A stretch of DNA of 63,985 bases, counting the filler, from Phoronis australis (taxonomy: Eukaryota; Animalia; Phoronida): assembly GCA_002633005.1 (NCBI GenBank). It is 7 parts of 7 records of this genome, joined end to end, with 100 filler letters (N's around TTAATTAATTAA, not from the genome) between each part and the next. Parts side by side here need not be neighbours in the genome. Positions count along the whole stretch, not along the records: positions 9,571 to 35,825 come from NMRA01001265.1; 6 more parts are not named here. One strand, given 5' to 3'. The position numbers and the translations under genes are program-made. Numbering within the stretch: position 1 is the first letter of the stretch; each line of letters begins with the position of its first letter. Below the pieces are notes generated by a model. It did not search any database. It was given only the letters and a program-made list of their open reading frames with translations, and had not been told where the DNA came from. Shown here piece after piece: positions 3,914 through 53,456 of the stretch.

Positions 3914-4615
3914 TTTTTTTTTTTATTCTCCCAGTTCAACATAAGTAAGGACAAAGGTCTGGGATTCCCTTGCCTTACTTTACAATTCAATGAAAATAAA
4001 GTTTACTAAGTTAAAATTATACGTGAACCGGATTTTGAAATAGATTTAACAAAAGAAAACAAAAACATACAAGACAATATAGTAGTATATGGCTCTGAAA
4101 AAAAGGAGGGGGAGAGTATTTTGGAATGATAAAATATCCTTACATTGCTATCAGATTATGCATTTGTGACCACCTGTTTGTAAATTTTTCCATTTGTAAA
4201 TTTTTTGAATAAATGTGTTTTTCACTGGAGTAATAACTGTTAATTTCTTTTGTTAATACAATTAAATTTGGAGGTTTACCCTTGAGACGTTGCTTATATA
4301 AATGGAACTTGCTGAGACACAAGATTAAATTTTGAATTGGCTGGCTTCTACATCTGTTTCCAAAGAAAACTGTAAGCACATTTGTACCAAGGGAAATATT
4401 AGTTTTGTTTCTAACCCAACCTTCAACATTGTTCCAAAAATTTTGAACAACATCACATTGCCAGTATAAGTGAAGCAAAGTCTCAGGTTCAGTCTTACAA
4501 AACGTACACAAGGGGGAGTTGGGCCCAATTTTGACAAGGTAAGAGTTACAGCTAATTATCCTATGTGACAGTCTAAATTGAAACCAACGAAGTTATTGAT
4601 ATTAAAATGCATTGC
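3914..4615 (-). mobile_element. 3' end of L1/Tx1-type non-LTR retrotransposon ORF2 with 3' UTR
   Basis: LRWFQFRLSHRII...CTFCKTEPETLLHLYWQC (zf-RVT CCHC-like), frameshifted; A-rich tail at 3914-3923. Confidence 0.8.
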
Positions 4616-5444
4616 ATGAGCATTTGATCAACAGAAAATCCGACTTGAATATGTGTGAAGAAATACCCTTGAAGAAATTGCAAGGTATGACAACTGTAAA
4701 TCAAAATAACCTACATTTGTCGAGTTCATGTCTAACCCTGTTCACTGTGGAGGAGATGATCGGCTTTTCACAAAATGGAGCCATGTATCGTATTTAGGGG
4801 TATTATAGCCCTAAGTGGAAAGTAGTAAAACGTTCAAAACATTCAGAAGGAACTACCTTGTTGCAAAATATCGAAAAACATGAAGAACAATCGGATTTTA
4901 CGGTGCTCACGCATCGAACTTAGATATATGAAAATTTCTAATTTTAGTACATTTGAGGTGCCAAAATGTATAACTAATAAACTGGCTGACAAAGTTTTTA
5001 TTTTATGCAATGAAAGTAACATGTTTTGTCAACATTTTGGCTAAGTTTCATTCTCATTGCAGTGGGGGCAGATTTGGTACAGCAGTGTACTGAACACAAC
5101 CTCAAAATGTCATAACGGGGAGCAGTGTAGTAAAACTACTAAATGAGGGTGGTAAATCGGAATCGTGTTTCAAGACATTTGTGTAACAGTCTATAGGCAC
5201 CACTAAACAATGCCAAGTCAATAATAAATCAATAGCTTTCATTCAAGGGAAAATATAAACAGTTAAAACTGGACAGTTTTTATACCGTGAAAACACGGCT
5301 GCGAAGCCGTAAAATGTGTTTGAGCCTATAAGTTTGGAAAAACGCAATATTTTGATAAAATATTTTACCGCTGTTTATAGATCCCATAGGACTACCCATG
5401 TGCCAAATTTGGTGAAAATCGGTTGACCCCCACCTTGCCGCTGG

Positions 5445-9470: not shown

Positions 9471-9570
9471 NNNNNNNNNNNNNNNNNNNNNNNNNNNNNN
9501 NNNNNNNNNNNNNNTTAATTAATTAANNNNNNNNNNNNNNNNNNNNNNNNNNNNNNNNNNNNNNNNNNNN
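9471..9570. other. Assembly gap linker N-TTAATTAATTAA-N (also 35826-35925, 48629-48728, 54122-54221, 59535-59634, 61735-61834)
   Basis: Identical 100-nt blocks with a six-frame-stop 12-mer; artificial. Confidence 0.97.
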
Positions 9571-10739: not shown

Positions 10740-11259
10740 TCGCTATTGAGGCCCGAAATTCAATTGTTTGCCTATGTCAAATAATTAGGTGTTAATAGAG
10801 AATCCTACACTTGTCTCAGGTTTATGACATGCGCAAAGCCTCTTGGAAATTTCTTCAAAATCTTCTGAGTTCAAAAAACACAAATTCACATTTTGCTGGT
10901 TTCATTTCTACGGGGTTAAAATATATGGCTACACCGTTCTGACTTCTCCGGTGAAGCAGGGTCAACCGGTTAAAGCAATTGGTTGGTTCTTGATGACGAC
11001 TTCCGGCTTTTAAGCCAATCAGATATCTTAACCGGCTACATCGACGATGCCAAACAAGTGCAGTAACATCTTGAGAGTTGTACCCTAAAAAGGTTGTGCA
11101 ATTCATGATTTCTATGACGAAAAATTACTGATTCGTGGATACTGTGTAATGAATAGGTTGTAGTGTGTTTTTATAACATTTACCTTTGTTTCATAGTTGT
11201 TACGATGAAGAATATATGGATAACCTCAATCAACTTGATAAGTTCAATATTTTATTCAC

Positions 11260-11536
11260 TTAGAACAAGGTGTTTTCATTGCGTCCTGTTACATAGCTGC
11301 AACTCATCCCTGGTCCCCTAGTAGGATCCGCAACTTGATCGAACCACAGGTTCTTCATGGGACGAAACTCTGTTTTGGCGTAGTTCAAGGCTATTTCACC
11401 CGTAGGGTCTTCCTCGTGTGTGAATACGTAGTCGTAACCAATATAGAATTTCACAGTTCGGTGATCCCTTGCAAAATCTCTGATACGATCGGTACATCGC
11501 TCGCACGGGGACAGTTGTGTGTACATGTGGATTTCT
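11260..11536 (-). CDS. SNAD-type deaminase gene A, terminal exon, second copy (allele/assembly overlap or alternative exon)
   Basis: 853 bp from the proximal copy, with the same acceptor, stop and AATAAA; four amino-acid differences. Confidence 0.6.
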
Positions 11537-12112
11537 CTGAAATATATCAGGCGCATAACAACTAATATTTCCTGTTCATCTGATTTTAAAAAGAGCGTAC
11601 CGGTGATCTTTTACCGAACACCAGGATTGAGTACTCCAAAATGCACCCTACCTCGCAATTTACAATGTCTTGCAACTTTAACGGTACCACGTTGGTTTCC
11701 ACTTGAAAGTTAGTGNTCTGAGTTCAAAAAACACAAATTCACATTTTGCTGGTTTCATTTCTACGGGGTTAAAATATATGGCTACACCGTTCAGACTTCT
11801 CCGGTGAAGCAGGGTCAACCGGTTAAAGCAATCGGTTGGTTCTTGATGACGACTTCCGGCTTTTAAGCCAATCAGATATCTTAACCGGCTACATCGACGA
11901 TGCCAAACAAGTGCAGTAACATCTTGAGAGTTGTACCCTAAAAAGGTTGTGCAATTCATGATTTCTATGACGAAAAATCACTGATTCGTGGATACTGTGT
12001 AATGAATAGGTTGCAGTATGTTTTTATAACATTTACCTTTGTTTCATAGTTGTTACGATGAAAAATATATGGATAACCTCAATCAACTTGATAAGTTCAA
12101 TATTTTATTCAC

Positions 12113-12389
12113 TTAGAACAAGGTGTTTTCATTGCGTCCTGTTACATAGCTGCAACTCATCCCTGGTCCCCTAGTAGGATCCGCAACTTGATCGAACCAC
12201 AGGTTCTTCATGGGACGAAACTCTGTTTTGGCGTGGTTCAAGGCTATTTCACCCGTAGGGTCTTCATCGTGTGTGAATACGTAGTCGTAACCAATATAGA
12301 ATTTCACAGTTCCGTGATCACTTGCAAAATCTCTGATACGATCGGTACATCGCTCGCACGGGGACAGTTGTGTGTACATGTGGATTTCT
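12113..12389 (-). CDS. SNAD-type deaminase gene A, terminal exon (SPCxxC), proximal copy
   Basis: Acceptor ATATTTCAG|A GAA ATC joins exon 1 in frame (AA+A=Lys), giving DTVKEIHMYTQLSPCERCTD...KFYIGYDYVF. TAA at 12113-12115; AATAAA at 12104-12109. Spliced product ~219 aa. Confidence 0.88.
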
Positions 12390-13060
12390 CTGAAATATAT
12401 CAGGCGCATAACAACTAATATTTCCTGTTCATCTGATTTTAAAAAGAGCGTACCGGTGATCTTTTACCGAACGCCAGGATTGAGTACTCCAAAATGCACC
12501 CTACCTCGCAATTTACAATGTCTTGCAACTTTAACGGTACCACGTTGGTTTCCACTTGAAAGTTAGTGCCTGCGCATTTGAAAAAAATATCATTTCTCCA
12601 CAAGTGCACTTCACATTGGATGCCGCAGATTCATTTCAGTTGCAATTCGTTTCTAGTGATAATCGAGTAAGCTCCATATCTTTTTCCAAATATAGTTGCT
12701 TTTCATTCCCATGATTTTTCGTGACTTACATGTAAGTGATTTAATGATGTTCAAGTACGTTTAAGTTTGGATTGTGAGCCTCAAAAGACTTTCCAGTAGT
12801 CTAAGTAGCAAGACCTCAATTGCTAAGTGGACGGGATCGCTGACCATGCCAAATGACATCAGGTCAGCTCTGTTGCAATAGGCGGATCCAGAGAGGTCAA
12901 AGATGCTCGGCCCTCTCTTTGTTTCTTTGATTTTAGTAATCCAATCTAGAATTGATCAAGTTGTTGACTGTGACCTCCCTACTGAATAATACTTCATCTG
13001 AACCCACCTCGGGATAAAAGTGACGATTTGTGAAGAACATCGACAGCGAAAAGTGAGACA

Positions 13061-13858
13061 TGTCGCAATCGGACGTGGAATTTCTATAAAACGTAGTGTA
13101 TATCTGATCAGATGGCACAACAGCCATTTAAAACCAAGATATACAAAGTCTCCCTACTTACATGAACACGTAGCTGCAGGATTCCTAAAGAAATAATTGT
13201 TCTAGTCAAACGCGTGGGATTATCGTTAACATGAAGAGCCTAAGCACAAATCACACTATGAGAATTCAGGACTTCTCACGGTAAAAGGTCGATTTTCCGT
13301 CTAACTTGGGATAGTTAGACAGGATTACAGATCAGCAGGGGGGTGTTACGACATAAATTTTCACCATCGATATTTAATATGCATAGTCTCATTAAATTGT
13401 GAATATGCAAACGAAGTACTAATTTACAAACAACCCGGGGAGCTCCAGTGTGTCGGAAANTGTCGCAATCGGACGTGGAATTTCTATAAAACGTAGTGTA
13501 TATCTGATCAGATGGCACAACAGCCATTTAAAACCAGGATATACAAAGTCTCCCTACTTACATGAACACGTAGCTGTAGGATTCCTAAAGAAATAATTGT
13601 TCTAGTCAAACGCGTGGGATTATCGTTAACATGAAGAGCCTAAGCACAAATCACACTATGAGAATTCAGGACTTCTCACGGTAAAAGGTCGATTTTCCGT
13701 CTAACTTGGGATAGTACGACAGGATTACAGATCAGCAGGGGGTGTTACGACATAAATTTTCACCATCGATATTTAATATGTATAGTCTCATTAAATTGTG
13801 AATATGCAAACGAAGTACTAATTTACAAACAACCCGGGGAGCTCCAGTGTGTCGGAAA
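13061..13858. repeat. 400-bp-period direct duplication joined by a single N (probable contig overlap)
   Basis: 13061-13459 vs 13461-13858, N at 13460, only a few differences. Confidence 0.92.
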
Positions 13859-14588
13859 CCATATGGAAACCAGTTATCATTACAAGGTCCAGAAAGGCTC
13901 GTTATGGGAGACTGTTTTTATGTAATTGAGTGTGGCAATATCTAACAATGCCTAAATCAGCTTACACTCCTCACTGTGACCACAACGAAAGCATTCGTTC
14001 TGTAATTTCATGTTGCCGTCACCTTGGATAATAACCAACATCATGCCATATATTGTCTCTGGTAGCGCAAAATCTAAATTTGCACATACACAGCTTTTTC
14101 ACCGTTCTCAGGACGTCAAAGGAATCCCTCGGAAACCCACAGCATTAAGTTGCCGTTACCTTAGTGAAACAATGCCAGATTTTATTATTCCTGCATTTCA
14201 CTATCAAATAAAGTTTTGCGTAATATCTGGAATTACTATGTTTTTTAAATCCGTACTTGTTTAAGCGTATAATGTCTTGTTCGGAATGGCTTGGTCTGTT
14301 TTATTTAATTAGGCTAAGGCTTAACTTCTGAAAATCTGTATACATCCTGGCAAAATCGAAGTCCCTAGCCTGTTCGTTTGAATGCTAAAAACCCAACCAA
14401 AAATAACGTTTGGCTAGTAGTTCTAGACTAAAGCCTCTGAAGTCTGATGACCATTAACGTGCACAATTCTGTCATACAATGCAGCAGATCAGTCGACCTG
14501 ATATGAGGGCACGTGAACTTTGTATTAAGTTTAGTTTTTTTTTTCGTGTAATGAGGGTGTAATCAGTACCTTTAATTACGCAACTTAC

Positions 14589-14971
14589 TTTACAGTATCA
14601 CCAAATTGTCGCATTACTTCAGGGAGGGCGTCCAAAACCTGAATCTCTGCATGAATTTTCACGTCGCCCTTAATGCGTTCACGCGCCCAGAAGTTCTGCC
14701 AACGAATGGGCGCATCCATGGTATACCACCTTTCCTTGTTAAGGTATTTGCTGCCCGGTTCCTTGTAGCAAGGATGGAGTGGGTTCTTTGAGGAGTCTCC
14801 TCCACTGTTTAAAACGCCTACAGCATACTGGTGATTCTTTAGTCCTGGATAATAGAACATGGAACTGGCGCCTCTAATATAGCTGTCGTCGAATTTATCC
14901 AAGCCGATATAACCGCTGACGACAGCGCACGCTGTCAGTAAGGTCAAACAGGTAATTTTCAGGTTCATCAT
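14589..14971 (-). CDS. Secreted AID/APOBEC-like (SNAD-type) deaminase gene A, coding exon 1 (signal peptide + HAE motif)
   Basis: Acceptor TTTTTTCAG ends at 14976; ATG ATG at 14971. Encodes MMNLKITCLTLLTACAVVSG (signal-peptide-like), NHQYAVGVL, KIHAEIQVL and QFGDTV. Donor AA|GTAAGT at 14588, phase 2. Confidence 0.88.
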
Positions 14972-15336
14972 TTTTCTGAAAAAAGTAAGGACTACTGTTA
15001 ATAGCACATTCATTCAACGTGTGGAAGTAGGTGACCGTTTGTGGAACTTTCAAAATAATATTAGAAGCAATAACTCGGATAAAGTGCCCTACTTTTCTTT
15101 GTAAAAGACGATGTCGCAGCTCAGAAGTGACATGATCACGAACCTGTTATTTTTAAGAAATAATATTAGTTAATAATGATAATAATAATAAACATAATAA
15201 CAATAATAAAACACTTTTGGTCGACACTTGTAAAAGAAAAACACATAGTTACAAAATCGGCATGTCTGAATAATTCGTACGAGGAGATAATTCGTGACAT
15301 AAACCAAGTTGTCAAACTGTTGATGAAGTCGCTTAC

Positions 15337-15580
15337 CTTACTTTCGACGTCACGACAAACCTCTGGGGTGAACAGAACCATGTGCACCGTTAAATATTTT
15401 TTCGTAGACCCGTATTCTTAGGAAATTAACATTAGCATGTGTCTGAACCGGATATTGGTATTTTTTCTTGTTTGATTACGAACGAACTTTGAAAAGACGA
15501 TGTTTACTCTACTACGATAGACCAGCTTAGATTTTTCATTACACATTTAAACGCGTACGAGGGCCATTGTACATGTAGAA
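15337..15580 (-). promoter_or_regulatory. Candidate promoter and short 5' non-coding exon of deaminase gene A
   Basis: TATTTAA at 15390-15396 and donor AAG|GTAAGC at 15336; block alignable to 28234-28470. The coding exon starts with an acceptor, implying an upstream exon. Confidence 0.5.
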
Positions 15581-15865
15581 AAAACACTTGATTATGGCAA
15601 AGTGTAAGTGAACGGATAAATGTCAACATGAATGCAAGTATAGACGCCATCCAGTGGCCAGTAACATTACTGCAAATCAAGTATGATCTCGCCTGTTCAT
15701 GAGATCTGACATTTGGCTAGTAGGTTTATATAATTAAGTCATATTTTGCTATTTGTCTTGTTATGATTTAACAGAATAACTTTGCAAGCATGTTCATTTG
15801 TTGAATTCTTGAGAATAGGTTCGTCATTGGTCTCTAGAAGCACGGTACATAAAATGTTCACTTAC

Positions 15866-16055
15866 TTAGAGACGTGGTTGGTTGTTGGCAGACGTTTCGA
15901 CCTGGTCCGCCAGGTCTTTGTTGATGAATGAATGATTTCCCGCCATACGCTCATTAAGAATGCTGGAGTACACGGGGGATAGGTGGAGTCCTCTGTCTCG
16001 GTTCAAGAGGGGACGCTGACTGTTGATGTTTATGGCCTCTTTGAGCTTACATGTA
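15866..16055 (-). mobile_element. Penelope-like element 3' fragment (end of GIY-YIG domain and pLTR) with degenerate hammerhead motif
   Basis: KLKEAININSQRPLLNRDRGLHLSPVY, followed by GACCTGG-CGGA-CCAGGTC-GAAACGTC. Confidence 0.8.
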
Positions 16056-19000
16056 CGAATATACCAATTTCGCCACTGCCCCAATACTAAAACTGCACAC
16101 ATTTAAATCTTGTTTCAGCCGTATAATTTTAATTACCGGGGTTAATTAATAAACTCAACATTTCCCTTCGCTTTTACTGTTTCATTTTTGCGGCAGCCAT
16201 GGGGGAGGGCTCCCTGAGCTCCCCCCACTAAATACGCCTATGTCTGTCTGCTAAGTCGCTGATAGGAGCATTATGAAAATTAGCAAATCTATGCCTGCTG
16301 AAAAAACACAATCAAAGGTCAATTTTCCGCAGGTCTGGCCACCGCGGTTTTTTCTACTGCCCCTTTTTGGCATCAGTAGCTTCATTTCCATAAGCTTGCG
16401 GAATTTTTGTGAAATTTGGCGAGTGTTTTTCCGTCAGTGTGGCAACGGATATTGGCGACTATTTGGGCAGATTTGACATCCATTGACTGATTTCTTTCCA
16501 CTGAAACCAACACAATCGTAGAGGATTTTCGGATGAGCTCGACTACAGTAGCACCCCTAGCGGTAATTGTATTTTTTTGCATCAAAGTTTGTTTCTCCTA
16601 ATATTTTGGAGACTATACCTCAGTGTATAGACGTTACAACAGATGGTGACATCATTTGACGGATCCGATACCTACATGTACATGTAATATTGGATTTTTA
16701 CGTTGGATTCTTTACCTGTTGAGTTCTTGGACGGATTTTCACGAATCATATATAATAGGTTTCTGTTGGCGAGACGATGACACGTCACGGTTCTTTACCT
16801 AGCTTGTAAGTTTTCTTCACTTCGAGTGACATTTTTATGATGCAAATAAACACCTTTTACGGCATATTTTCTCTACATTCAACTCCATTTTTCACATTTT
16901 GCTCTTATGAGAATTCTTGGTTATGACATCAGTCCATTAGAACTTAAAACCCGACGTCGTGCTCTATTCGCGGCAGAAGGATGTAGTCGAATATTCTAGA
17001 ACTGCTCGCGGTGTTTACGTCCAGGAAGTTGAATATTATCAGCGGTGATGCAATCGCTTGTGAAGTTACCATCAATTGTCAAAACGAGCTACAAAGTGAA
17101 AGAATTTGTGTCTTTATGAAGAAGAAGACAAAATTCAACCTTAGAAGTTTGGATGAACGAAAACGGCCAGTTATGAAGAATGTTTCGAAATTTGTACTAA
17201 CGTCTAAAGCAGTGAACGAACTGGGGTTACATTGCCATGCTTGTGGTTTCACTAGGATTTAGGCAAATTGAGGCGTTTATTATATTTGCAACGCAGTTAA
17301 CGCCTTCACCCTCTTCACACAACGTTCCCATGGCCATGTTGAAATAATGCAACCCTAGCCGACAATACTCCCTTGCTACAGGAAACTGGTTAGCAGTGAT
17401 ATTTTTGCTTTTTTTATACTTGACTCCTTGTGCCCATTGCCATGAGAACGTTCAGGGAGTAGTGTCTGAACAGAATGGGTCACATTTTTTTCGACTACAC
17501 AGAGACCCGCGATAAGCAATCTTCTTAAAGCTACCAGAATTATTGTAGGACGATGGTAAAAGGTTAAGTAAGTTATTTCAAACTTATTTACATATAAAAT
17601 TTACAGTCCAAAGATAAATTTCACATGGCAGCATGTTTGTCTACTTTTTTAAATTCTGAGACAGTGACAATGAGGTATTTCTGTGATAGTTCCATTGCCC
17701 GTTCTGGTAGTTACAGTGTATGTGCGTTCGCGATTATTTGAAACACCTAGCTTAAAACAGAGTGAAGAGCAAATGAAAGATATACTGTACCTACATGTAC
17801 ATGTACAATTCAATCGAAAGAACAAACGACGAGAAGAGTGTATGCGAACGGTACAATAGCATGGGCGGCGCACCATTGTGGGTAGGGGGCTACAGCCTCC
17901 CCCACCTATTTCAGTGGTGCACCGCCATATGTGAGATGCAACTTAGGGGGGGGGGNNNNNNATCGCCCTCTTTGTTAACAAAGTCTCCGGTCAGCCTTTC
18001 TATAAATGAGCACGATATTGTGAAATGGTATTGAAAGCAACAATATATCAGTTACAATACAATGTCCGGTGGTATCGCACATCAGTCTTTCTCATCAGAT
18101 GAATGATAACATTTTTTTTTTTGTAACTCTAAGCCCTTCTATCTTTAAGATCTTCTCTAGTGCAATGTTCTAGGTTACTTGGGAAGCACTACGTTAGTTT
18201 ACCGTTTAAAAATAATAAGACTACCCTAAAGTTCAGAAAAGTAGAGGGGTTAAAAAAGACCTCTACATGTACGTGTATACCAGTAGCATGACTAAAATGA
18301 CCTGTGTTGCGGATAGTTTGCCAGGTTATTTTGTTCATTGTGTATTTTGTATGTAAACTTGTTTGGTTTTACTTGATGTTAGTTTTCTGTCTAATCTCTT
18401 CTAGGCCCTTTCTAGTCTATTGTTTCATTTTTTCGCTATTTCACTCTGCCCGCATCATTTTGAGCGTCAAGTCGCTTACTGTTGTCGTGTGTCTAGTGAG
18501 TATTTTCTTTACTTATCTGTATCATTTCCTTTGTTTTGGACGCAGTCTTTACATTTTCATTGTTCTTAGTAATTTGTGTAGATATTATTGTATTTAATTT
18601 GGTGTATTTTTCTGTGTATAATTTGTTCCCGTGGTGCGTTTTTTTTCTGTGCGTCTTGAGTTCGCCACACCCTTGGTCAGCCACTTTGGTATTTTTTTGT
18701 TTTCGCACACAAGATACTATCAAGTTTTTGTATGGTGTTCTGACTTTATTTTAACTAAGTGTTCATGGGCCACATTTGGGCTACGGAGCAAAATATAACG
18801 ACTGCACTACCATTGCATCCTTTATGTATATTCCGACGGCAACAACCTGTAAACCCTTTTTTAAAAGTTCCATGAAAGTCAAGGTTTTCCCCGTAATAGA
18901 ATTCTTTTGCAAGACATGATACGAGTTGTAAACGCTTATTCCTCCGCTAAGAAAAATGTAGAATTTTTAGCTCTTTTAGAGATTATCTATTATAAATTAC

Positions 19001-19071
19001 ACGAAAATGGAAACATTGAAAACCTCCTCACCCACCAAGTATTTAATACTTTCTCAGTGAATGGCGAGGAG

Positions 19072-19311
19072 CAACCAGCGAGTCACTGCGTTACGTCCGC
19101 TCTACAACTAGCGAGTCACTGCGTTACGTCCGCTCTACAACTAGCGAGTCACTGCGTTACGTCCGCTCTACAACTAGCGAGTCACTGCGTTACGTCCGCT
19201 CTACAACTAACGAGTCACTGCGTTACGTCCGCTCTACAACTAGCGAGCCACTGCCTTACATGTACGTCCGCTCTACAACCAGCGAGTCACTGCGTTACGT
19301 CCGCTCCACAA
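19072..19311. repeat. 33-bp minisatellite, 7 copies
   Basis: Unit CAACTAGCGAGTCACTGCGTTACGTCCGCTCTA; unit 6 carries a 6-bp insertion. Confidence 0.95.
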
Positions 19312-21334
19312 TCAAGGCTGCATCAAAAAATTATGTATTCCTCATTAGTCTGTTTAAGTGGATTCCAAGGTAGTTTCGTGAGCTTACGTTTTTGAGAAAT
19401 ACATACATGTACATGTACATGTACAGCCGCTAGATCCTTGCCCAGCTTGAAAGAAAACACACCGCGCGGTGTGGGACAAATGAGCACCGCACTTAGCGGA
19501 CGAGGCTGTTTGTATGTGCAATCGGGTCATTCTTTTGATACCGTTTAGGTGGGGACACGTCATTAAACATTGAAAATCCTAACAAAGAAGCATTTTACAC
19601 CCTATAATAATAACATTAACGAAAACAGCAAATCTTCGTATCTTATTTGTAACCTGGGTCCCGACCCACGGGAATCAAATCATTCTGTTTGAGCGATAAC
19701 TTAGCCTTCAGAAAATTTACACAAGGTGCTATAGTACAGTATAATTGTACGTAAACGCTTCAGACGGGCTTTTTTAATCAAACAACAAATACCAGCAACA
19801 AACAAATCCCGGCCATGGTAACTCCACGCGATACTGGTTATGGGAAGGACTTTTACTGGCGATAGTAGCGGTGATCGTAGTAAATGGGATAGTCTCCCAA
19901 TGGAGGTCGAATACCACAGTAGAGTCCCTCTCGGACTATATGGGAAGTGGTTGCCACAAATGGTATTCAGCTGTTCCTTGAAGTTGTTTTGAGTGACTTT
20001 ATATCACAAATCTGGCCTCGGAATAATCTGGTCTACTATGATACAGAAGTGCCGCCATTTTGAGAGCACATAGTTGTTGAGTCTTTTAAGACTCAATTTA
20101 AAAATTCTTGGCACGAATCCTGGTACCCTTCAGACAAGTGAAAATTGTCAAAAATCGGGTTAATAATGACATATTTTAAACTAAATTTCAGGAATCCAGA
20201 CTGACAGAGCATTTGGATGGTGGTCTCTTTTCTTGCATCTGGGCGGTCGTGAATTTGTGATTTTAGGATCAGGTAAAATATGGCCAACGTCGCACATTTT
20301 TGGTTACTTTTGGCATCTCGATCTCTCAGGGAGGATGTAGCAAAGTAAAATTACCATGCTTGGCAGAACTTCGTTTTTGGGTAACCCGAAAGAGTGTGCT
20401 TTCTGTCACTTATGCTATATTTTTCAAGTGTCCAATAAAGCTCTTGCAAACAAGGTCTCTGATTGACCCAGGCCAGTCAAAAAGGTCAAAATCAGCCAGC
20501 GTTACTGTGGTCTTAGTCCGGAACAAACGGGAAACTTGTTACACATGTGCTGATTATTTGGTACGTTAGATTAATTCTGTTTATACTGAGTACACCAATT
20601 ACGCGTTACATCATCAAGTCAATTCTCTGACATATGAATACGTTTTTTCAACGTATCCCAAAAATAATTTACATGTACTCAACGTTACACGTGCTATTTT
20701 CACTTACATGTATAACGAGCTACGCCTGTCGTTCTCATGGATTTAATTGTGGTGTGCAAATGAACATTTCTCAATCCCGCTACCCCCTCTCTCCGAAGTC
20801 ATAGTTCAACGTCAAAAAACCAAAAGGTCACGGTGCACTTGTGTAAAATGACCCCTGATTACATTTTACGGAGTAAAAAAGTAGGCTACGCCGTTCTGAC
20901 GTTTGGTGAGCTCTGCGATTTTTTTTCTTCAAAAAGTGCATTTATGGCTGGAATTCCGCATTTTTGTCATCATACGGCCGGTAGTGGAGGGTGTCTCATA
21001 TATTGCCGTGGTCAGAATTCAATTTCATGATGACTCCCTTGATTGACTTCGCCAGTGTAGCACGGTCAACCGGAAAAAAGCAACTAATTGGGTCTTGGTG
21101 ACGACATCCGGGTTCTTAACCAATCAGATGTCTTAACCGGCTACAACGACGACGTCAAACAAGTGCAGCAAGTTCTTCAGAATTCTATACAAAACCACAG
21201 ATTTTTGGAGACGGTAGTTATTTGTTTCCATAACTTTTTATCTTCGTTTTATTTATGCAGTGGTGACGATGACGAACAATTACATACGTAGGTTACCACA
21301 GCCAATTTTATTTTTCAATCAATATTTTATGCCA

Positions 21335-21605
21335 TTAGAACAAGGTGTTTTGGCCGCGTGGATAACTGCAGCTCATAAAGGGTCCCTTAGTAGGATCAGC
21401 AACTTGATCGAACCACAGGTTCTTCAATGGTGTAAACTGTTGTTTGGCGTAGTCCAAAGCTATTTGACCTGTTGGGTCTCCTTCGTGTGTGAATACGTAG
21501 TCGTAACCAATGTAGAATCTCACAGTTCCGTGACCTCTTGCAAAATCTCTGATACGATCGGTGCATCGCTCGCACGGTGACAGTTGTGTGTACATATGGA
21601 TTTCT
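21335..21605 (-). CDS. SNAD-type deaminase gene B, terminal exon (SPCxxC)
   Basis: Acceptor ATATTTCAG|A GAA ATC (AG+A=Arg) gives DTVREIHMYTQLSPCERCTD. TAA at 21335-21337; AATAAA at 21307-21312. Spliced product ~217 aa. Confidence 0.88.
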
Positions 21606-24600
21606 CTGAAATATATCAGGTGCATAACTATAAATATTTCCTGTTTATATGATTTTAAATAGAGCGTACCGTTGAACTTGTACCGAACACCAGGATTGAA
21701 TATTCCAAAAGACACCCGGCGTCGCGATTTACAGCGTCTAGCAACATTAACGGTACCACATTGGTTTTCACTTGAAATTTCATGCTTGCAGAATGAAAAA
21801 TAGAATAAATTAAACACAACTACCCTTCAAATTAGACGTTTTAAAAACCACAACTTAACGACCTTCTACATATTAATTTTTGTGAAAAATGCACAAATTT
21901 GCATTGAAACACTATTGTTATAGTACATGTACGTTGTGTTTGCATGCGGTACGCCAAAATGTATACATGTATGGTATGTTTCCATAAGCCTAGGAGCTCC
22001 TAGCGACTTGTATATCCGAATTACTTACTAGAAAGCCATTTTGATAGAGGAATGGATATCCCATGCTTTCAGCAAAACACATCCAATTTCCTGGGGTGCG
22101 TTACATGAATGAAGATATAAAACACACATTTGATCTCGTGCTTCCACGTCACAGTTGCTGAATTAATTTTTAGCCCAGTAATGATGAGAGCAGCTGCGTC
22201 TAAAATTATTTATATAAATTATTTCGATAACTGTCAGCTATCTGTATATTCTCCGATACTTCGGACTTTTTAAATATTTTTTCCCGAAATAGTTGTGTCA
22301 GCATAAGACCAATTAAGTGACTAAGTCTTAAGTCACGTTTCGTAAAATATACCCCTTAGTGATGGTGAAAATGTGTTTCGTGACAACAAACCGTGCGCTT
22401 TAGTCACCTGTTTAATGTGACGTCATTTTGACTTTTTGAACCCACTCAGTCAAAAAACCTGAGGCAACTGCCATAGTCAAGGAAGTCTAATCATTCATTC
22501 GTAAGATGGTTAACAGTTTCGTGTAACCAACTGCTAAAACAAAGCATCGACAGTTGGTATTGGTTACGCCTTGTAAATTCGTAGGCCTTATGGTCTTTGT
22601 CGTCGACAGGGAACGTTGGAGTCATCGTCGTCGTCTGTAGTGGGTCGCACATGTACATAGATCGTCAGGATAGTGGAAGTAGGCAGCGACAAGGTTGACG
22701 ACCCCTTGGAGGCGCAGAATTGTTGGCAATAGTGAGAGCGGTTCGGCAACATTATCCTTCGCCCAAGCGGCAATAATCCCTTCAACGACACTATTGACAC
22801 TATGCGCACACCCAGCCTAAATTACATGTATAGGAGGTCCAAACTTTCCGGTACTCGGACCTTTTACAGAATAACATCAACGAATACTACAGAAAACGGA
22901 GCCAATATGTTCAGGCTTACGAATTGTGCTTTCGCGCCGAATTCCTGTGGACTTTTGTCTTATTTGCTCGGACTTTTTGTTTCTCTGGGGTGGACCTTTT
23001 TGCCCACTTCGCCAAATGTGGGGATCGGCTCGTGCGAGGCCGAGACCCCCTTGGTGCGTGCATGGTTATTATGATTTGCATGTAATGAATTTTCACATGC
23101 GGAAAACACTGCTGTCTATGCTACTATTTCTGATGACCGCGTACATGTCGAACGGGGTAAACAAATAACTCTCGCAATCATATACAATTATTTTAGCATT
23201 TTTGTCAGTGGAGTTCAAATTTACCTCGTGAACCATTATAGGCACATTTACCTCTAAAATTAGAAAAAATACACCGTAATACGAATGCCCCATCTCCTAT
23301 GTTCCTCCGGTTACCCGTCAAAAATCTGCGAGCATGCCTGCGGAAATTGCTTATAACATTTAGTTTTGATAAAAAAATCTTTGGTTTCTATAATTGTTTA
23401 TGTATCTACGAAAATCGATAGATTCATGGATGACTTTTGACAGTTAGATGCTAATCTTCTCAGAGATGATGATATTTCAGTGAATTTAATTGCAGCCTGA
23501 AGTTGTAAAAACTCTGTAATCCGATCCTCAAATAGTAAAGTACACTTAAAAGATGTTTGCTAATCTAAAATAGCTCTTAATGACATTGATGAAATTCAGA
23601 CTCAAAAACAGTAGATCGAAGAAAGTTTTAAAAGTCCTTAAATAAATAAAATTAAACTCGTTTCTTGGAAAAGTTGTCTTTGTACTTACTTGGTGTTTTT
23701 ATTTTCTCGTAGTTTTGAGCAGTAGATTTTTGTTCTTTAAAACTGAATTGATTGCTTGCCCAATTCCCGTGCGCGTCATGACTGGCGCACCGACGTTAAA
23801 AAAAAGATAAAACCGTGCAGAATCTCAGAGATCCACGGGAACTGAACTTCAGGCGTCGAAGTGTGACTAATTTTTTTTTGTGAAACACTCTGTATCATTT
23901 TCCCAAACCACCAGAAACTGGACTGTCGGTCGTCATGTCTGAACGATAGATTTTGAAACAACCCCAAAGGCACTATACCAGGACCCCGGTACCTCACCTT
24001 TTCGAAAAAACTCCTTCAAAGAATGAACATAATAAAATAAAGTTCTCCCCATGCTGGATCACACTAAAACGAATCTTGGCCTTAGAGCCAGTGCGAAGGG
24101 CTTGCACGAGCTGCCTGCCTCAACTGAATCACTGCTACATGTAAGCTGACCAGCAACTAGCTTTATTTCGTTGGGAATTTCGTATTTTCACACTGTTAGA
24201 TCTCAGTTATAGCTACTTGAGGAAGCTCTTCGCTACCGGTCAGTTTACTGGTCCTAGGCCTATTCTTACTCTGCATGTTGGGTCACGGTTACTCGACTCT
24301 TGATCGCTGCATCCCGGGATTGTCCCCCACCTACGTGTAGGGCGGACGTGGGATATTCGGTTCAATTATGGTGGCATCGGGAGCACAGGGGTGGCGGAGT
24401 TGGGGGGAGGGGTAGTTTGGCGAAGTCTAAATGGTTTGTGAACCCCCCAATAATTTTTGCCTTCGTACAGGCCTGCAGAGACGTTCTCAGTCACGTACTT
24501 GTTACCAGCCCTCACAAACACACCTTTTCATGTCTGAAAAATGCGGCTCTCCGCGCACTTTCCTCACAACTCCTCAGTATCGCACTAGTAAAACAAGGGT

Positions 24601-25370
24601 GGAGACGGTCTTCCAGCCATTAAGTACAAACCCAACAACAGAATTTTTTTTAATTTTTGGCTTTGTTTCTTAGCAAAGGTGTACTAAAGGTTATTAAATC
24701 TCTTATGATGTTTTAATAAAATAACTTTTGAGAGGTTCAAGGTCAAGGTGGGAACTCTTGAAGAGGGTCGACATTCCGTCTAATTTGGGATAGGATAGGA
24801 CGAGAAATCAGAAACAGGTAATACGACATAAATTGTCACCATCGACATTAACTATCACCCCTTGCATAATGTCGACTAACAAACAATAAGTTTTACCCGG
24901 CAAATTATTGTTTGTCGGGTAAAATGGCGGCTTGGAAACGAAGGTGTGTCAATAATGCTGCCTTCTAAATGGTCAGTTAAGCCGTCACCCAAAATCCTGG
25001 CGATAGGTCAATTCAAGCCCATGGCAAATTGATGTAGCAGGCGGTCGTTTCTCGAAAAGTGTGAGGAATGACTGTTTCGTGAAATTATGCTAAGACTAAA
25101 ATTCTAGTGAAAGTCTGCCAACAGCCTAAAATGAATACCAAACTCCCCAGCCTACTTCTTCGTAAAAACCCAAACCGCTCCCCTCAAAACAACGTCTGGA
25201 TATAGATATTTCGAGAATTAGGCCCTGAAGTTTGACGACGGTTAACATGCGCAGGTTTGTCAGACAAGGTGGCTGATCACTTGACCTGATGTGAAGGCAT
25301 GTGAACGCTGTAATCAGTTTTGTTTCTTCGTGTACCAAGTGTGTAACCTATACTTTAGTAAGCAACTTAC

Positions 25371-25753
25371 CTTACAGTATCACCAAACTGTCGCATTACG
25401 TCAGGGAGGGCGTCCAAAACCAGAATCTCTGCGTGAATGTTCACGTCGCCCTTAATACGTTCGCGCGCCCAGAAGTTCTGCAAACGAATGGGCGCATCCA
25501 TGGTATACCACCTGGCCTTGTCAAGGTATTTGCCGCCCCCTTCCTTGTAGCAAGGATAGAGTGGGTTGTCCGAAGAGTCGCCTCCCGTGTTTAAAACGCC
25601 TACGGCATACTGGTGATTCACCAGTCCGGGGTAATAGAACATCGTACTGACGCCTCTAATAAAGCTGTCGTCGAATTTGCCCAAGCCGATATATCCTTTA
25701 ACGACAGCGCACGCTGTCAGTAAGGTCAAACAGGTAATTTTCAGGTTGAGCAT
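25371..25753 (-). CDS. SNAD-type deaminase gene B, coding exon 1 (signal peptide + HAE motif)
   Basis: Acceptor TTTTTTCCAG ends at 25758; ATG at 25753. Encodes MLNLKITCLTLLTACAVVKG...NIHAEILVL. Donor AG|GTAAGT at 25370, phase 2. Same 383-nt length as in gene A. Confidence 0.88.
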
Positions 25754-25889
25754 GATTCTGGAAAAAAGTAAGGACTTCTGAAAGTAATACTGGCACTCAA
25801 CCCTCCAATGTGTGAAACTACATGTACATGTATGTGTCCGTTTGTGGAATTGTCTCGTTGTCTCTCAACGCTCAGATGCAAGACATTAA

Positions 25890-27942
25890 AGAAGAATGCC
25901 ACCCAAAAAACATCATATTTTGTATCAATTTAGATCGACATGGCAGCGTTTTCCAGTTCAGTGACTTTACCAGACGAAGGGTGTTCTGAGCGTTTGAAAA
26001 CATCTAGCTTATCGGAACTTCGGTTGCAGTTGGGCGATTTTGGCGATTCAAAAACTAAACATGATCATCATTTGACAAGGATTTCAAAAATGCTATTGGT
26101 TTATGTTCAAATATGTTATAACTTAAACTTTTATTTTTAACAGCACAGCCCAGTCAGGCTAGATATTATCTTTTTGAAGATAAGAGCACTTATCGAACAA
26201 AAGAGAGCTGGCCTTCCAACCATGAATGCCAGACTGGAGTTAATCAGTGGTGTACGATATTGCCTACAGGGGTAAACTTCCCAACTTGTTGTTGGGCTAT
26301 AGAATCGAGCAACGGGAAAACGCCGTAATGTAGTTCCAATAACAGCAAGTTCAGTTGTTTTACCTGACACCTAACGGCAAACAGTGGTGTTGAAATTAAC
26401 CAAGGACGTAATCGGTTCGAACGCAGTCTCTTCAACTGTTCACAACACACTTACAGTACGCGTGTCAACTTATCGCTTGAATTCATAGTTTTACACCATT
26501 AAATAAGCAAAATTCGATGTAAACCCCATACAAATACATCGAGTTCTTGAACAAACGTGTTGTTATATATTTTACTGTTACGGATTGATAGGTAGCCTAC
26601 AGAATTCGGTAGGCCAATTTACCGTGGTCGATAGCGGGGGTTTAGGCCTGTTTTGTGATAAAGTCGAATCATTCTCCCGTGAAATACAGACGGGGGAACA
26701 TACATGTAGCTGCCTGTTGTACTTCTAGGCATGCGATTTTTTCAGTTCTAAACACACAAAACGCTTGTTACTCCCCGCCAGTGGCTCGGAACCCTGAGGC
26801 ACGTCGCGGTCGCCGGGACTGGACATCATGACCGTAAACCAGCTCAAGTTGGAAAATGAACCTGCTGTCACGAAAAGACTATAAAAGTGAGCCAAAGAAA
26901 TATTGTGCACGTAATTATTGAGGTGAACTAGACACGAAACTGCAAATCTACTTACTTGTCGGAGGTCGCGATATCAGGTTCCCTTTCCACAGAACAGTCA
27001 GGGCAGAGGTTATACAGTAACAAAGATTTGAATAATGTATTTGTATATCTAAATAAAGATTCCCCTAACATGTGACCATAGCATATAAAATCGAGTCACT
27101 GTTTCACAACACCTTTCTGTCAGCAAACACTGAATTAGCATGCGCTCACACGGCCTCGGTGCCTGGTCAATTACTCTTATTGCATCTAGGCCTAAAGCCG
27201 GTAACGAAGCTACAGTAGTTGCTGGCTTCTCAAAACCTTGCACTCACGAATACTCCAAAGGTATTACAAATTGTATCTAATGAGACAGGCTTTGTTTTAG
27301 ATTCTATAAGCATTGGTTAAGGCGAGAATAATTTATTTTGAAACAGAACGCAGAAAAATAATCGTCTACATGGCAACTCGCCCGGCGCCAATCCAGACTT
27401 AGTCGAAAGCTCATCCGACGAAGACTTCATGAATCGGATCGTTAGGTTTCACAGGCTATCAGTTAGAACCGGATTACACAGTTCACGAAACACTAGAGAG
27501 GCGCCGTGAACATGCACAGGCAACGGAACATATAGATAGCTCTTTGGTACACCGGAATTTGTCAGAGAAATCACTGTCCGACAGTAATTTCTCTGACAGA
27601 CACGGAGATGTTTCACGGCCTCATGCCTACTATTAACACAGTACTTTTCATTCTTGACTTCCGCGAGCCACTTCCTAAGGATTTCGGGCTCTCGAGGAAG
27701 TCGAAAAAACGATATACCCACTTTCTTTGCAGCTTCATGGTTCGGACAAGCGGTAACGTTGCACGCAGTATAACGACATTTACGCTACAAATGAACCACT
27801 GACGTCGTCGCGTCGTTTCTTATCTTCTTCACAGGTTAACGCGACACCTCTCGGTCAGGTGAGGTCGACCGTATCAGAGGTGATATGGCTATCGACCGAT
27901 TGAGACTGTAAAAAAACCAATTAAATCGGGTGGCATTCTCCT
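25890..27942 (-). mobile_element. Non-autonomous Kolobok-like DNA transposon with THAP remnant, in the putative first intron of deaminase gene B
   Basis: TTAA (25886-25889)-AGAAGAATGCCACCC...GGGTGGCATTCTCCT-TTAA (27943-27946); THAP-like CNVTACPN...ISFFRLPREPEILRKW...RVC at ~27600-27770. Confidence 0.8.
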
Positions 27943-28233
27943 TTAATGTTTGGATATTACCAGGAATACCCCGAATGAATTGGCCTAGTTTTCTTCATGA
28001 AAATATGATGTCGCAGCTCAGAAACGAGACAATGCCAAACCCGAAATAATTCATAACTAGTAGTCTTAGGGTCTCCCGAGGTTCCAAATTTACCGACTCA
28101 GGCCTTGGTTGACTGTTGTTAAAGAAAAATAAATTATTATATATTAAGGAAAATTGGGAAGCCTGAATAATTCGTAACTGGAGATAAGTTGTGACAAAAA
28201 TCTAGTAGTCCGACTGTTGAGTAAATCGCTTAC

Positions 28234-28470
28234 CTTTTTTCGACGTCAGGACAAACGTCTGAGCTGAACAGTATTTTTGCACACATTTAAATACTTTTTC
28301 GAAGGCCTGCATTTTTAAGAAAAAAAACATTAGTGTGTGTCTGAACCGGATTTTGGTCTTTTTTGCCTGTTTGACGACGAGCGAGCTTTGAAAAGACAAT
28401 GTTTACTGGATTACAATAGACCAGCTTGAATTTCTTATTACACACTGTAGTGTACGGGGCCATTGTAGAA
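28234..28470 (-). promoter_or_regulatory. Candidate promoter and short 5' non-coding exon of deaminase gene B
   Basis: TATTTAAA at 28286-28293 and donor AAG|GTAAGC at 28233; homologous to the gene A upstream block. Confidence 0.5.
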
Positions 28471-31400
28471 AGTAATTGAATTATGTCATTCTGCACGTGT
28501 ACATGTATCTGAACGGTTATGTGTAGCCATGAATATAAGAGTGGCAGTGGCGGATTTAGGAAGAGGCCGTAGCAAGGGGCCATGCCCCCCTCCTAAATTT
28601 GCACAGATTCCATAAGTACATGTAGGTAGTCGCGCAGTTCTGCGTTTAATTGTGCGCCCCTATCGAAAAGAAACAAAGTGGATTGAGGGGAGGGGTTGGA
28701 GGCAAGGGGTCCACGCCACTCCCCTCTTAAAATTCTCTTAGATTCCATAAATACATGTAAGTAATCCCGCACATCGGTTTAATCTAAAAATACCATATTA
28801 TAGTTTTGCGGTAAATAGGGCGCGCGTGCACGGAAGAGAACACAGGTGACAGGTCACAGTCACATAACAGAGAAGAAGTTTCCTCTTTTGTGAAGTGGGG
28901 TGACGCACCCGTTCCTTACGCAGTTACTCGCTTTAATCAAAATAGAATTGTGCGCAGTTATGCTCTAAAAGGGAGTCCAGTACATACTGCTAACGTTCCA
29001 GCACGTGCACTTACTTGCTTCAATCACACTTGTCAGCCTTGCGATATACTCCCATCAAACACACACTATGATAAGAGCGCAGTTACGCTCTTAAAGGTTT
29101 CCAGAACATTCTCCTAACGTTGTAGCTCGTGCAGTTATCTGCATCAACCTCGCTCGACATACTTCTAACGCTCCATCCCGTGAAATTACTTGCTTCAACA
29201 ACACTCGTTCAGCTTAACGCTCCGACTCCCAGCAAACATCCAATATCGCATTTTTCTGTGGTGATGACTCCATGAAATAAAAGATCACAGTTGTTCTATT
29301 TTTAGTCAGTTTTTAAATTCACAGTTTTTGAGGAGTTAGCTTTTGGACTTCATGCTCATATTAATTTTGAACTATTTCCTCTACATCTTTGAAGACTAGC
29401 ACTTCCAGGTCAGCATTAAGATTAAAAAATGTGTGCAGTTATGAATAGTGTTATAGTTTCAAAGGTATTACGGGGAGTTTATGTTGACATATTCAGGCTT
29501 ACGAATGTCAATATACTTCATTTCTCATGAGATCTAGTTCTTTTCTCATCTGTAGCAATCTTTTGTCATCAAATGTACAAGTTCCAAGTTGTACATGTAT
29601 TGTAAAGGCGATTGTAATACACCTGCATGAGGTGTCATGTATGTAACACGTGCTTGCTACAGTATAACTCGTGCCTTTTTTTAGTTATAAAAATGTAATT
29701 AACAATAAAACAACTCAGTTAGTAAGAACTGAAAATACTTCAATTCATAAAAAAGAATTGTGTTATTGAGAATAAGTCATTAAGCAGGCCGTGAGTGAGA
29801 AAGATTGTCCAGTCTGTTATTCCATTCAAACCACATTATCTTTTAATATTTGTCTTTAGATGTGACTGAAGAAATTTTTTAAAAAGAATTAAGAACGGCA
29901 CTCCCCCAAAATTTGAACACTCAAGTGATGAGTTAGATTACACAATTCTGTATAGAAAACAATATAACCTTCTAAATCCACCACTACAATGGTTCCGGTT
30001 TTTTGGTGACTTGTACAGATGTGGACCACTCCTTGGATACTTTCCTCTGGTTGTCTGTAGAAGTACATTCCAATCTGAAATTTACAATTTCTAATTTGTT
30101 TTCAACTTAAAATATGGCAATTAAACAAAACTAAAAACACGAAAATCTTGTTTCCAATGTTATTCAATCCAACAAGATTAAAAACAGGTTTCAACTATAC
30201 ATGTAGGCAATGAGTATTCTACAATCACCTTGTCCGTCAATAGGAAATGAAACGAAAAAGGACATTTTACCCTTTATTTATACCTCTTTTGGCATTCTAG
30301 GCCTCTGATTAGCCAATATTTGTGTTCTATTTCGGACTATTGTCACCAGCCAAGGGTCATTGAACACTGACATATTAAATTACGTCCAGACTGCCGTGTA
30401 CATGTACATCGGTAAAAATCCTTGACCACAAATTATTCCTCAACGATTAGCATACACTGTTTCCAGGCCGGTTTATTTTTGGGCGGCGCACTGCGCCCTT
30501 TTCGCTGAACTTTTAATTTAGGCGCACTACAGTTGGGATTCACCGGCTTTTTTGTCTGTATTTACAGAACTGTTTTCGCGGCAAAATTACGTTATGTGTT
30601 GATGTGACGAGGAAATGAGAACAGGTGTAAATAACAACAAATCACTGTAATCCACATGCATATGTACATGACTTGTATACTAGGTGTCCAGTATTCAGAG
30701 TCAATGACCATCCTTATAAACCACTTTGATGAACTCATTGCCAAATCTACAATATGACCGTCTTGGCTACGAAGAGACGTACCACTTTTAATATTTAACG
30801 GATCCCTGGATATAATTTTCAATAAGTTTTTTGTAAATTAACTACAGTTGTAGCTACTTCAGTGCGTCCACGGCAACTACATCACTGGTAAAAACATTAG
30901 ATTTTTTTAACTGACAGTGAGCCTCACATTGTTTTTTTGTTAAGCCGGACGTGATTTAGCTTTCTTTGTAGTACAAAGCCCAGGACCGTAGTAAGGCAAA
31001 AATTGTTGGGGCACAAACAAATTCGACATCGCTAAACTACCTCCCCCCCACCTTCCTATCGCCACTGCCTGAGCCCCCTAACCCTCCTCCCCCGTTCTTC
31101 GTATGCCGCCATATTTGTACAGAACATGCACGTCCGCCATACATGTATGTGGGGGGATCCTGGCGATGCAGCCATCGAGATTTGAGTAACCGTGAAACTT
31201 TGTTGGTAGCCACTGAGGAGGGAATTCTTAATTCGATCGAATCCCCCGGATCACTCCTCACTTGTTGTCTTTACGACAAGTTTCCCAGGATTGTCGGATT
31301 CCTTGCAACCCACATGTATGTTCAAAAGCAGCCCCGCAATAATCCCGTTAGGGTAAAGCAAAAGTTCAATTTCCCATCAATGCTTCTACTGTTGTTCTTT

Positions 31401-53365: not shown

Positions 53366-53456
53366 AAGGTCGAATTTCTGACACTCCCGAAGTCTCCCCA
53401 ATAATTATGCAGAAATATCTAAACTGACGGGATAAACGTCTTCAGATCAGCTACAC

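Follow-up and report, generated by a model that had tools for sequence, protein, structure and literature searches.

Paired genes for predicted secreted AID/APOBEC-like deaminases, likely from an invertebrate

A tandem pair of intact, spliced and transcribed paralogs lies on the minus strand of the window, the whole 63,985-nucleotide stretch of DNA analysed here, and its products are predicted to be AID/APOBEC-like deaminases (AADs) destined for secretion. We put at slightly better than even the chance that they form a separate branch of the SNADs, likely invertebrate, which converts C to U in viral or microbial single-stranded nucleic acid. The 5′ untranslated exon, the purifying selection, and the signs of further alleles or paralogs beyond the two genes are new here.

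In the proposed mechanism, residues 1–20 would be cleaved off in the ER, giving a mature enzyme of 23 kDa in which His107, Cys139 and Cys142 would hold zinc and Glu109 would activate water. Phe166, in loop 7, may restrict the pocket to a pyrimidine, the spare Cys68 and Cys207 could form one disulfide, and the C-to-U reaction would take place outside cells or on entry. We infer activity, secretion and an immune role for a variant of the secreted AADs, the immune use being suggested by analogy with SNADs.

Gene structure, transcripts and selection

Gene 1 comprises a 5′ untranslated exon, the 3′ end of which lies at 15337–15353 (donor GT at 15336), a first coding exon (14589–14975, ATG at 14971), a phase-2 GT-AG intron of 2199 nt (12390–14588) between HAE and PCxxC, and a last exon (12113–12389), all on the minus strand. 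The first coding exon encodes the predicted signal peptide, the QYAV strand, the insert with Cys68, and HAE; the last exon encodes YTQLSPCERC, strand 4 and loop 7, and a tail with Cys207, ending in the stop codon. The joint 12389–14589 is crossed by 178, 125 and 313 reads in X2, X3 and X4, respectively, and by one X1 contig, with all junction reads oriented as minus-strand RNA predicts. Expression is steady and high in all three raw-read runs, and stranded RNA depth is 128–307 in the bin of the first coding exon. The 383-nt exon of the preliminary description stands in structure but is not the first exon: there is an acceptor 4 nt ahead of the ATG, and 227 X4 reads with a loose end at 14977 continue upstream, matching a short exon at 15353–15339. 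In the coding frame, the leader shows a stop farther upstream and no other ATG, which makes the assigned ATG the first in-frame start.

Gene 2, also on the minus strand, has a first coding exon (25371–25757, ATG at 25753; X1 contig 25372–25617) that shares 89% nucleotide identity with that of gene 1, followed by a phase-2 GT-AG intron of 3765 nt (21606–25370), and a last exon with 3′ UTR (21289–21605) that includes the stop at 21335 and runs to a poly(A) site, marked at 21289 by the loose end of one X1 contig. The 3′ end of its 5′ exon (28234–28270, start approximate; donor GT at 28233) is placed by homology with the gene 1 leader only (76% identity over 367 nt), there being no read joint among the joints listed; an in-frame ATG 19 codons upstream of the assigned start would be relevant if the transcript begins early. 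The intron joint was found in 0, 0 and 11 reads in X2, X3 and X4, and in one X1 contig, which differs in letter at the last exon base. Splicing of both genes had been proposed from the sequence, and read support for gene 2 is far below that for gene 1. A further joint, 12389–25374 (14 and 5 reads), might suggest that gene 2 is spliced into gene 1 by read-through; we rejected this because the junction letters fit neither gene and the two genes differ at only 6/75 and 5/75 of the bases that flank it.

The coding structure first described was otherwise reproduced. The two 383-nt exons both begin with ATG and end at a GTAAG donor, the second exon is preceded by a CAG acceptor in each gene, and the in-frame phase-2 joins give products of 219 and 217 aa, free of internal stops and identical at 181 of 219 aligned positions (82.6%, where ~83% had been claimed). 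Each stop is followed by AATAAA, 4 nt downstream in gene 1, and 23 and 82 nt downstream in gene 2. Placed after codon 127, the intron divides one zinc-binding half from the other, and because it separates the ligands, ORF scans miss the genes; such an intron is unremarkable in itself, since fish SNAD1 genes are also multi-exon according to the portion of PMC11004436 available.

The last exon occurs a third time, at 11536–11260, within an 852-bp duplicate block, two copies of which (10864–11715 and 11717–12568) are joined by a single N and are 98.7% alike, with 11 differences in 852. The block at 10864–11715 is most likely the other haplotype. Three of the four exon variants of the block copy are read on gene 1 (212/213, 220/222 and 225/225 X2 reads; mixed in X4), and all four last-exon differences between the haplotype copies change a residue. 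The single-N join, the 98.7% likeness over the flanks, and variants read as alleles, in reads aligned to a stretch outside this copy, make 11260–11536 improbable as a third gene or alternative exon. The start at 11260 originally given to the locus coincides with this copy, and not with gene 1, the last exon of which ends at 12113.

The gene pair is under purifying selection, with a dN/dS between paralogs of 0.36 (bootstrap 0.22–0.61; none of 2000 resamples at or above 1); being below 1, this value offers no hint of an arms race between gene 1 and gene 2. Synonymous divergence between them is 27%, whereas the haplotype blocks differ by no more than 1.3%. In a repeat-rich region with haplotype overlaps, where X2 and X3 contain hardly any reads of gene 2, one might suspect duplicates in decay or an artefact of assembly, devoid of function; given the open frames, junction reads, dN/dS and synonymous divergence, we regard this as highly improbable, and for gene 1 as largely refuted. 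The pattern [YF][TS]xxSPCxxC occurs three times in the six frames of the window vs twice in 60 shuffles combined. The lineage-specific expansion proposed earlier draws on two genes and on reads hinting at more variants. Among the sequencing runs listed as containing the sequence, none was on record as RNA.

Protein features and database searches

Both proteins have HAE at 107–109 and PCERC at 138–142, with 28 residues between, and carry the AAD zinc motif HxE-x25-30-PCx2-4C as given in section 4.2 of PMC11004436, in the portion available. The predicted signal-peptide-like N-terminus was recovered on a heuristic reading, with Lys5, a hydrophobic stretch at 6–18, VxG at 18–20, a hydropathy peak of 2.45 and, in gene 1, the first in-frame ATG. 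Cysteines occur at positions 8, 15, 68, 139, 142 and 207 only. F166, in YIGYDYVF, is the putative loop-7 aromatic (cf. APOBEC3A Y130), as placed by eye against the rows of Fig. S1 of Krishnan et al. (2018) compared. Loop 7 has an acidic end, HDED in gene 1 and HEGD in gene 2, and the tail extends ~27 residues beyond Trp192. In loop 3 there is no Asn 5–7 residues before the His, with Gly102 or Asp103 as possible substitutes, substitutes being permitted.

The last exon matched ten Pfam models, all deaminases, led by SNAD4, NAD1 and APOBEC4-like. For gene 1 SNAD4 was best (E 1.2e-6, 29 bits, cut-off 27), and for gene 2 it scored E 1.1e-5 and 25.9 bits, below the cut-off, so that the curated threshold was passed by gene 1 only; other last-exon scores included NAD1 (8.1e-6) and APOBEC_N (1.2e-4). 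The first coding exon matched no Pfam model, SNAD1–3 included, even at E 10, and its likeness to SNAD1 is therefore by eye only. The expected AID/APOBEC-like profile was consequently found in the last exon and not in the first coding exon.

A PDB sequence search placed APOBEC3F in the top six positions, none significant (E 0.14–0.41), and a PDB profile search with the first exon gave no matches. AlphaFold models of the separate halves had pLDDT of 41 and 33, and Foldseek with such half models returned no matches at E 0.001. A word-index search, a weak tool by which a conserved PNP exon also gave 0/5 at E 1e-20, yielded 0/5 candidates for the first coding exon at E 0.01, and 0/20 for the last exon at E 1. 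The best ESM Atlas scores, 0.76–0.77, are leads only, and for the last exon point to bacterial Toxin-deaminase clusters. Locus scans for relatives gave 0/101 and 0/78 in metagenomes and 0/30 in viral loci. Four bacterial loci were rejected as chance SPCERC matches without an upstream HxE, one being presumably a RecR-like zinc finger. NCBIfam gave no match, Rfam 0, and PADLOC a single weak SIR2 match (E 0.026).

Alternatively, the products might be secreted enzymes that deaminate free cytidine, dCMP or digested nucleic acid and serve metabolism in the gut or mucus, with no part in defence. The steadily high reads of gene 1, purifying selection, the loop 3 without Asn and the acidic mature protein (pI about 6.2) would suit such an enzyme; we nevertheless hold it to be rather unlikely, as profile scores prefer polynucleotide deaminases over dCMP_cyt_deam_1 (E 0.045), and tandem duplication with amino-acid variation between alleles is usual for defence genes.

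Host type and significance

Overall CpG o/e is 0.88; it comes close to 1.0 across the repeat-rich middle and is 0.57–0.79 at the ends. Such a mosaic pattern is typical of invertebrates according to the available part of PMC6336885. On CpG composition the host is likely an invertebrate, as had been proposed at the outset.

Krishnan et al. (2018; PMC5889660) inferred a split between secreted and intracellular AID/APOBEC-like enzymes at the root of the animals. Secreted members are therefore predicted in invertebrates between sponges and vertebrates, none being given in the available portions of the text and Fig. S2 of that paper, and this gap would be closed by an invertebrate pair that is transcribed and selected. 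On the boldest form of the SNAD-branch reading, to which we give slightly less than an even chance, the pair would bridge sponge SNAD4 and vertebrate SNAD1–3, editing of C to U outside cells would be an ancient means of invertebrate immunity, and a small, well-expressed enzyme would be at hand with which a secreted deaminase of the group could be assayed for the first time. As 23-kDa single-domain proteins, the products would make the substrate of secreted nucleic-acid deaminases testable, and divergent deaminases are useful for base editing. On SNADs in hemichordates, amphioxus or base editing, nothing relevant was found in the literature searched, most subscription journals being outside its coverage.

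Relation to SNADs and classical deaminases

SNAD1–3 are described in vertebrates and SNAD4 in sponges only (PMC5889660), and the portions of the literature available report secreted AID/APOBEC-like enzymes from jawed vertebrates, sponges and slime moulds only. In sharks, SNAD1 protein has been detected in plasma (PMC9207270, in part), and the available parts of PMC8201067 and PMC11004436 report no SNAD activity.

By eye, the N-terminal half appears to follow vertebrate SNAD1. The distance from QYAV to the His is 59 residues here vs 58, 62 and 63 in the SNAD1 rows of Fig. S1 compared (hand counts), all three of which have QYA[VY] at strand 1 and 58–63 residues to His, whereas 12 of 13 non-SNAD rows have 18–32 and none of the 13 has QYA. 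QYA[VYL] at a distance of this type arose in 47 of 200,000 shuffles (post hoc). The long strand-1-to-His stretch with a cysteine, Cys68 here, is common to the pair and the SNAD1 rows. However, SNAD1 has a Cx3C site and a Cys starting strand 3, where the pair has Cx2C and lacks that Cys, and SNAD1 and SNAD2 have a C...CxxC...C tail in strands 5–7, where the pair has one tail Cys (available part of Table S1); neither half matches the SNAD1 or SNAD2 Pfam models, and the host is likely non-vertebrate. SNAD3 has lost its signal peptide and gained a large insert after strand 5, whereas the pair keeps a signal-like N-terminus and a short tail.

The pair shares Cx2C and an acidic stretch closing loop 7 with sponge SNAD4 (PF18750). 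These features, a Trp near strand 5, CpG composition compatible with a sponge, and SNAD4 as the best Pfam match, above cut-off for gene 1, speak for an ordinary member of a described subclade, the host being a sponge (SNAD4) or a vertebrate (SNAD1). This is quite unlikely in our estimation, as SNAD4 has a Trp in loop 7 and a charged residue before CxnC, where the pair has Phe166 and QLSP before Cys139; the two SNAD4 rows compared have no long strand-1 insert (22–23 residues to His), and a CpG o/e near 1 over repeats is at odds with global methylation.

Classical invertebrate AADs (SpAIDL, LaAIDL; Liu et al. 2018, PMC5956068) resemble the pair in HxE-x(24-36)-PCxxC, a length of about 200 aa, and being multicopy and polymorphic, and two from sea urchins mutate C in bacterial assays (PMC5956068). 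It is unlikely, though in keeping with the Cx2C spacing, with NAD1, APOBEC4-like and APOBEC_N scoring within 3–7 bits of SNAD4, and with zero matches to SNAD1–3 models, that the pair belongs to this lineage, known from sea urchins and brachiopods, and gained its signal peptide independently, being SNAD-like in working and not SNAD kin. As described, the classical clades lack a signal peptide and have a short strand-1-to-His distance, unlike the pair, whose strand-1 QYAV and long insert fit the SNAD1 rows. Neither protein has the motifs listed for the Lop-Ech-Cni and Lop-Ech-Zn2 clades in the available part of Table S1, namely WP ahead of strand 1 and either NYS ahead of CxnC or a second zinc site in loops 1 and 7.

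The secreted AADs of dictyosteliids (PMC5889660) share a signal peptide and local expansion with the pair, but those in the portion of the paper available have a four-cysteine C-terminal domain and a loop-7 Trp, neither of which is present here. For none of SNAD1–4 does the pair have the complete set of features. Of the original assignment to SNADs, an AID/APOBEC-like zinc deaminase with SNADs as the closest described kind is supported; membership of one of the four subclades is not.

Structure and transcription of the gene pair

The gene pair is real and expressed. On the minus strand, each gene joins a 383-nt first coding exon, bearing HAE, to a last exon bearing PCERC: gene 1 at 14971-14589 + 12389-12113 (219-aa product), and gene 2 at 25753-25371 + 21605-21335 (217-aa product). 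The splice coordinates proposed in the preliminary description proved exact, with in-frame phase-2 GT-AG splicing and no internal stops in either gene, and the products are identical at 181 of 219 positions, in agreement with the ~83% claimed. HAE occupies residues 107-109 and PCERC residues 138-142, with the coding intron falling after codon 127, so that each coding exon carries one half of the zinc site. Only one further copy of either exon was found in the window, a last exon at 11536-11260 (the third exon copy).

Four sequencing runs were aligned over 11717-31500: contigs (X1, presumed to be RNA) and three sets of raw reads (X2, X3 and X4), with ~18–19% of each raw-read run sampled. The predicted coding joint of gene 1 was borne out in all four, being crossed by 178, 125 and 313 reads (X2, X3 and X4, respectively), all oriented as minus-strand RNA would be in most stranded libraries, and spanned by one X1 contig. 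That of gene 2 received partial support, from 11 X4 reads and one X1 contig with a different letter at the last exon base, with no crossing reads listed in X2 or X3. Mean depth in last-exon bins was 61–146 for gene 1 versus 1.6–7.2 for gene 2. Many repeat-derived RNA reads, from both strands, lie in the gene 2 introns. An X1 contig end places the gene 2 poly(A) site at 21289 (minus), ~18 nt beyond AATAAA.

The coding splice originally proposed holds, but the genes have three exons. In gene 1, 227 X4 reads run on at 14977, their continuations matching 15353-15339 (minus) in an upstream leader exon with a GT donor at 15336; in gene 2, a leader exon is indicated by a homologous donor at 28233 (minus), with no support among the reads listed. 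As the gene 1 leader contains an in-frame stop and lacks an in-frame ATG, the hydrophobic segment is the true N-terminus of the gene 1 product. Gene 2 has an in-frame ATG 19 codons upstream, absent from gene 1. A THAP domain (27452-27784, minus; E 6e-8) lies within the 5′ intron that gene 2 is inferred to have.

Constraint and probable alleles or paralogs

Both genes are maintained. Between them dN is 0.098 and dS 0.269, giving a dN/dS of 0.36 (bootstrap 0.22–0.61), a comparison with no sign of positive selection; differences fall at 1 of 21 positions in strands 1 and 2, versus 12 of 46 in the tail. Of the 21 coding variants listed from reads, eight alter the protein sequence, and all 21 leave the reading frame intact.

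The third exon copy, in an 852-bp block whose two occurrences are 98.7% identical and joined by a single N, looks like a second haplotype: three of its four variants occur in nearly all gene 1 reads of X2 and X3, and in ~78% in X4, the fourth being absent among the read variants listed. The last-exon copies differ at 12235, 12313, 12320 and 12266, and while these four differences are too few for claiming selection, all alter a residue and two give the gene 2 residue, which hints at balanced alleles or gene conversion. Another haplotype overlap is likely at 13061-13858 in the gene 1 intron, where two stretches of 98.5% identity are again joined by a single N.

Reads in which a first exon resembling that of gene 2 is linked to a last exon resembling that of gene 1 (14 and 5), together with one X1 contig differing at 15 of 302 letters, point to additional alleles or paralogs, in favour of which read-through splicing from gene 2 into gene 1 was rejected as the source of the cross-gene joints. 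Mosaic paralogs are described for the AID/APOBEC-like family in the sections of PMC5889660 drawn on here.

Surrounding sequence and CpG composition

Broken frames at 5283-7311 (minus), in which a PHD finger (E 5e-12) precedes a TatD-like nuclease piece (E 5e-9), are probably what is left of a mobile element. Other mobile-element remnants are a BEL/Pao retrotransposon remnant at 37674-39926 (plus), with Peptidase_A17, Integrase_H2C2 and DUF5641 each in its own frame, and two LINE zf-RVT pieces (4143-4592, minus; 34071-34394, plus). A 245-codon frame at 53436-54170 (plus) resembles LINE ORF1, with no Pfam support. A purine nucleoside phosphorylase (PNP) gene has its last exon at 58816-59028 (minus), mammalian enzymes being closest among PDB entries, and a separate exon at 61091-61465 (plus), which resembles an AGPAT3/4 acyltransferase, gave no profile match; this region is CpG depleted. 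At 40983-42537 lies a diverged tandem array (period ~320 bp, units ~70% identical). In the scaffold gap at 9471-9570 and five similar ones, a 12-base spacer is flanked by 44 N on either side; it is one identical AT-only word in the four gaps where it was checked.

The host is an animal, to judge by its introns, the PNP exon and the THAP, BEL/Pao and LINE remnants. If the host were a sponge or vertebrate, the products could be an ordinary SNAD4 or SNAD1 member. Vertebrate genomes are globally methylated. CpG o/e, in this one 64-kb window, is 0.88 overall and 0.57–0.79 at the ends; across the repeat-rich middle most 4-kb bins give 0.88–1.04, while three, in that middle or adjoining it, are at 0.79. 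This fits mosaic rather than global methylation, mosaic being the usual invertebrate state (PMC6336885, in the part consulted), and is no argument against a sponge.

Predicted mechanism and family placement

Profile searches used single exons, lowering sensitivity. The last exon matched 10 Pfam models, every one a deaminase, led by SNAD4, then NAD1 and APOBEC4-like; gene 1 matched SNAD4 at E 1.2e-6 (29 bits, cut-off 27) and gene 2 slightly below the cut-off. The first coding exon, as a single-exon query, matched no Pfam model up to E 10, and PDB sequence matches were to APOBEC3F at non-significant E. Insensitive homology searches returned no relative from the databases covered.

Most likely, the predicted signal peptide would be cleaved after Gly20 to give a secreted 23-kDa enzyme of putative deaminase fold. 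Zinc would be bound by His107, Cys139 and Cys142, with Glu109 activating water for attack on cytosine C4, the zinc-dependent mechanism of the family (PMC11004436 section 4.2). Phe166 may limit the pocket to a pyrimidine, and a Cys68-Cys207 disulfide would fit extracellular life. By analogy with the target proposed for SNADs, the substrate would be single-stranded nucleic acid of viruses or microbes, met in body fluid, mucus or endosomes, with a putative immune role; as an alternative, the products could be metabolic nucleoside deaminases.

Secreted AID/APOBEC-like deaminases are already known as a kind, having been reported in 2018 from vertebrates, sponges and dictyosteliids (Krishnan et al. 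2018, PMC5889660), with sharks later added to the SNAD-bearing vertebrates (PMC9207270). In the portion of PMC5956068 used, the AIDLs of sea urchins and brachiopods are the invertebrate enzymes with demonstrated activity. Fig. S2 of Krishnan et al. gives hemichordates and cephalochordates zero AID/APOBEC-like deaminases (AADs) of any kind, and one review loosely attributes SNAD-like enzymes to protochordates (PMC8201067). In the literature searched, no other invertebrate is described as having a secreted deaminase that resembles SNAD1.

Motifs were compared by eye with those of Krishnan et al. 2018 (PMC5889660; Table S1 and Fig. S1); the full SNAD alignments S15-S19 could affect the resulting placement. 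By hand counts, strand 1 opens with QYA[VY] in all three SNAD1 rows, and the His comes 58, 62 and 63 residues later; similarly, the window proteins have QYAV, 59 residues to the His and a Cys in the intervening loop. A classical AAD that gained secretion convergently would be a competing origin; in the non-SNAD rows, the His follows after 18–32 residues in 12 of 13 (the exception being an algal low-complexity insert) and QYA occurs in 0 of 13. The two SNAD4 rows have 22–23 residues, and QYAL with a distance of 29 occurs in one of two SNAD3 rows. When the region was shuffled, the motif fell at the SNAD1-like distance in 47 of 200000 cases, a post hoc figure. The window proteins lack the cysteine tail and Cx3C of SNAD1/2, as well as the SNAD3 features and any clear loop-3 Asn; with SNAD4 they share Cx2C and the acidic loop end, but not the loop-7 Trp and charged residue. 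On these motifs, the window proteins appear SNAD-like in working, and are assigned to none of SNAD1-4.
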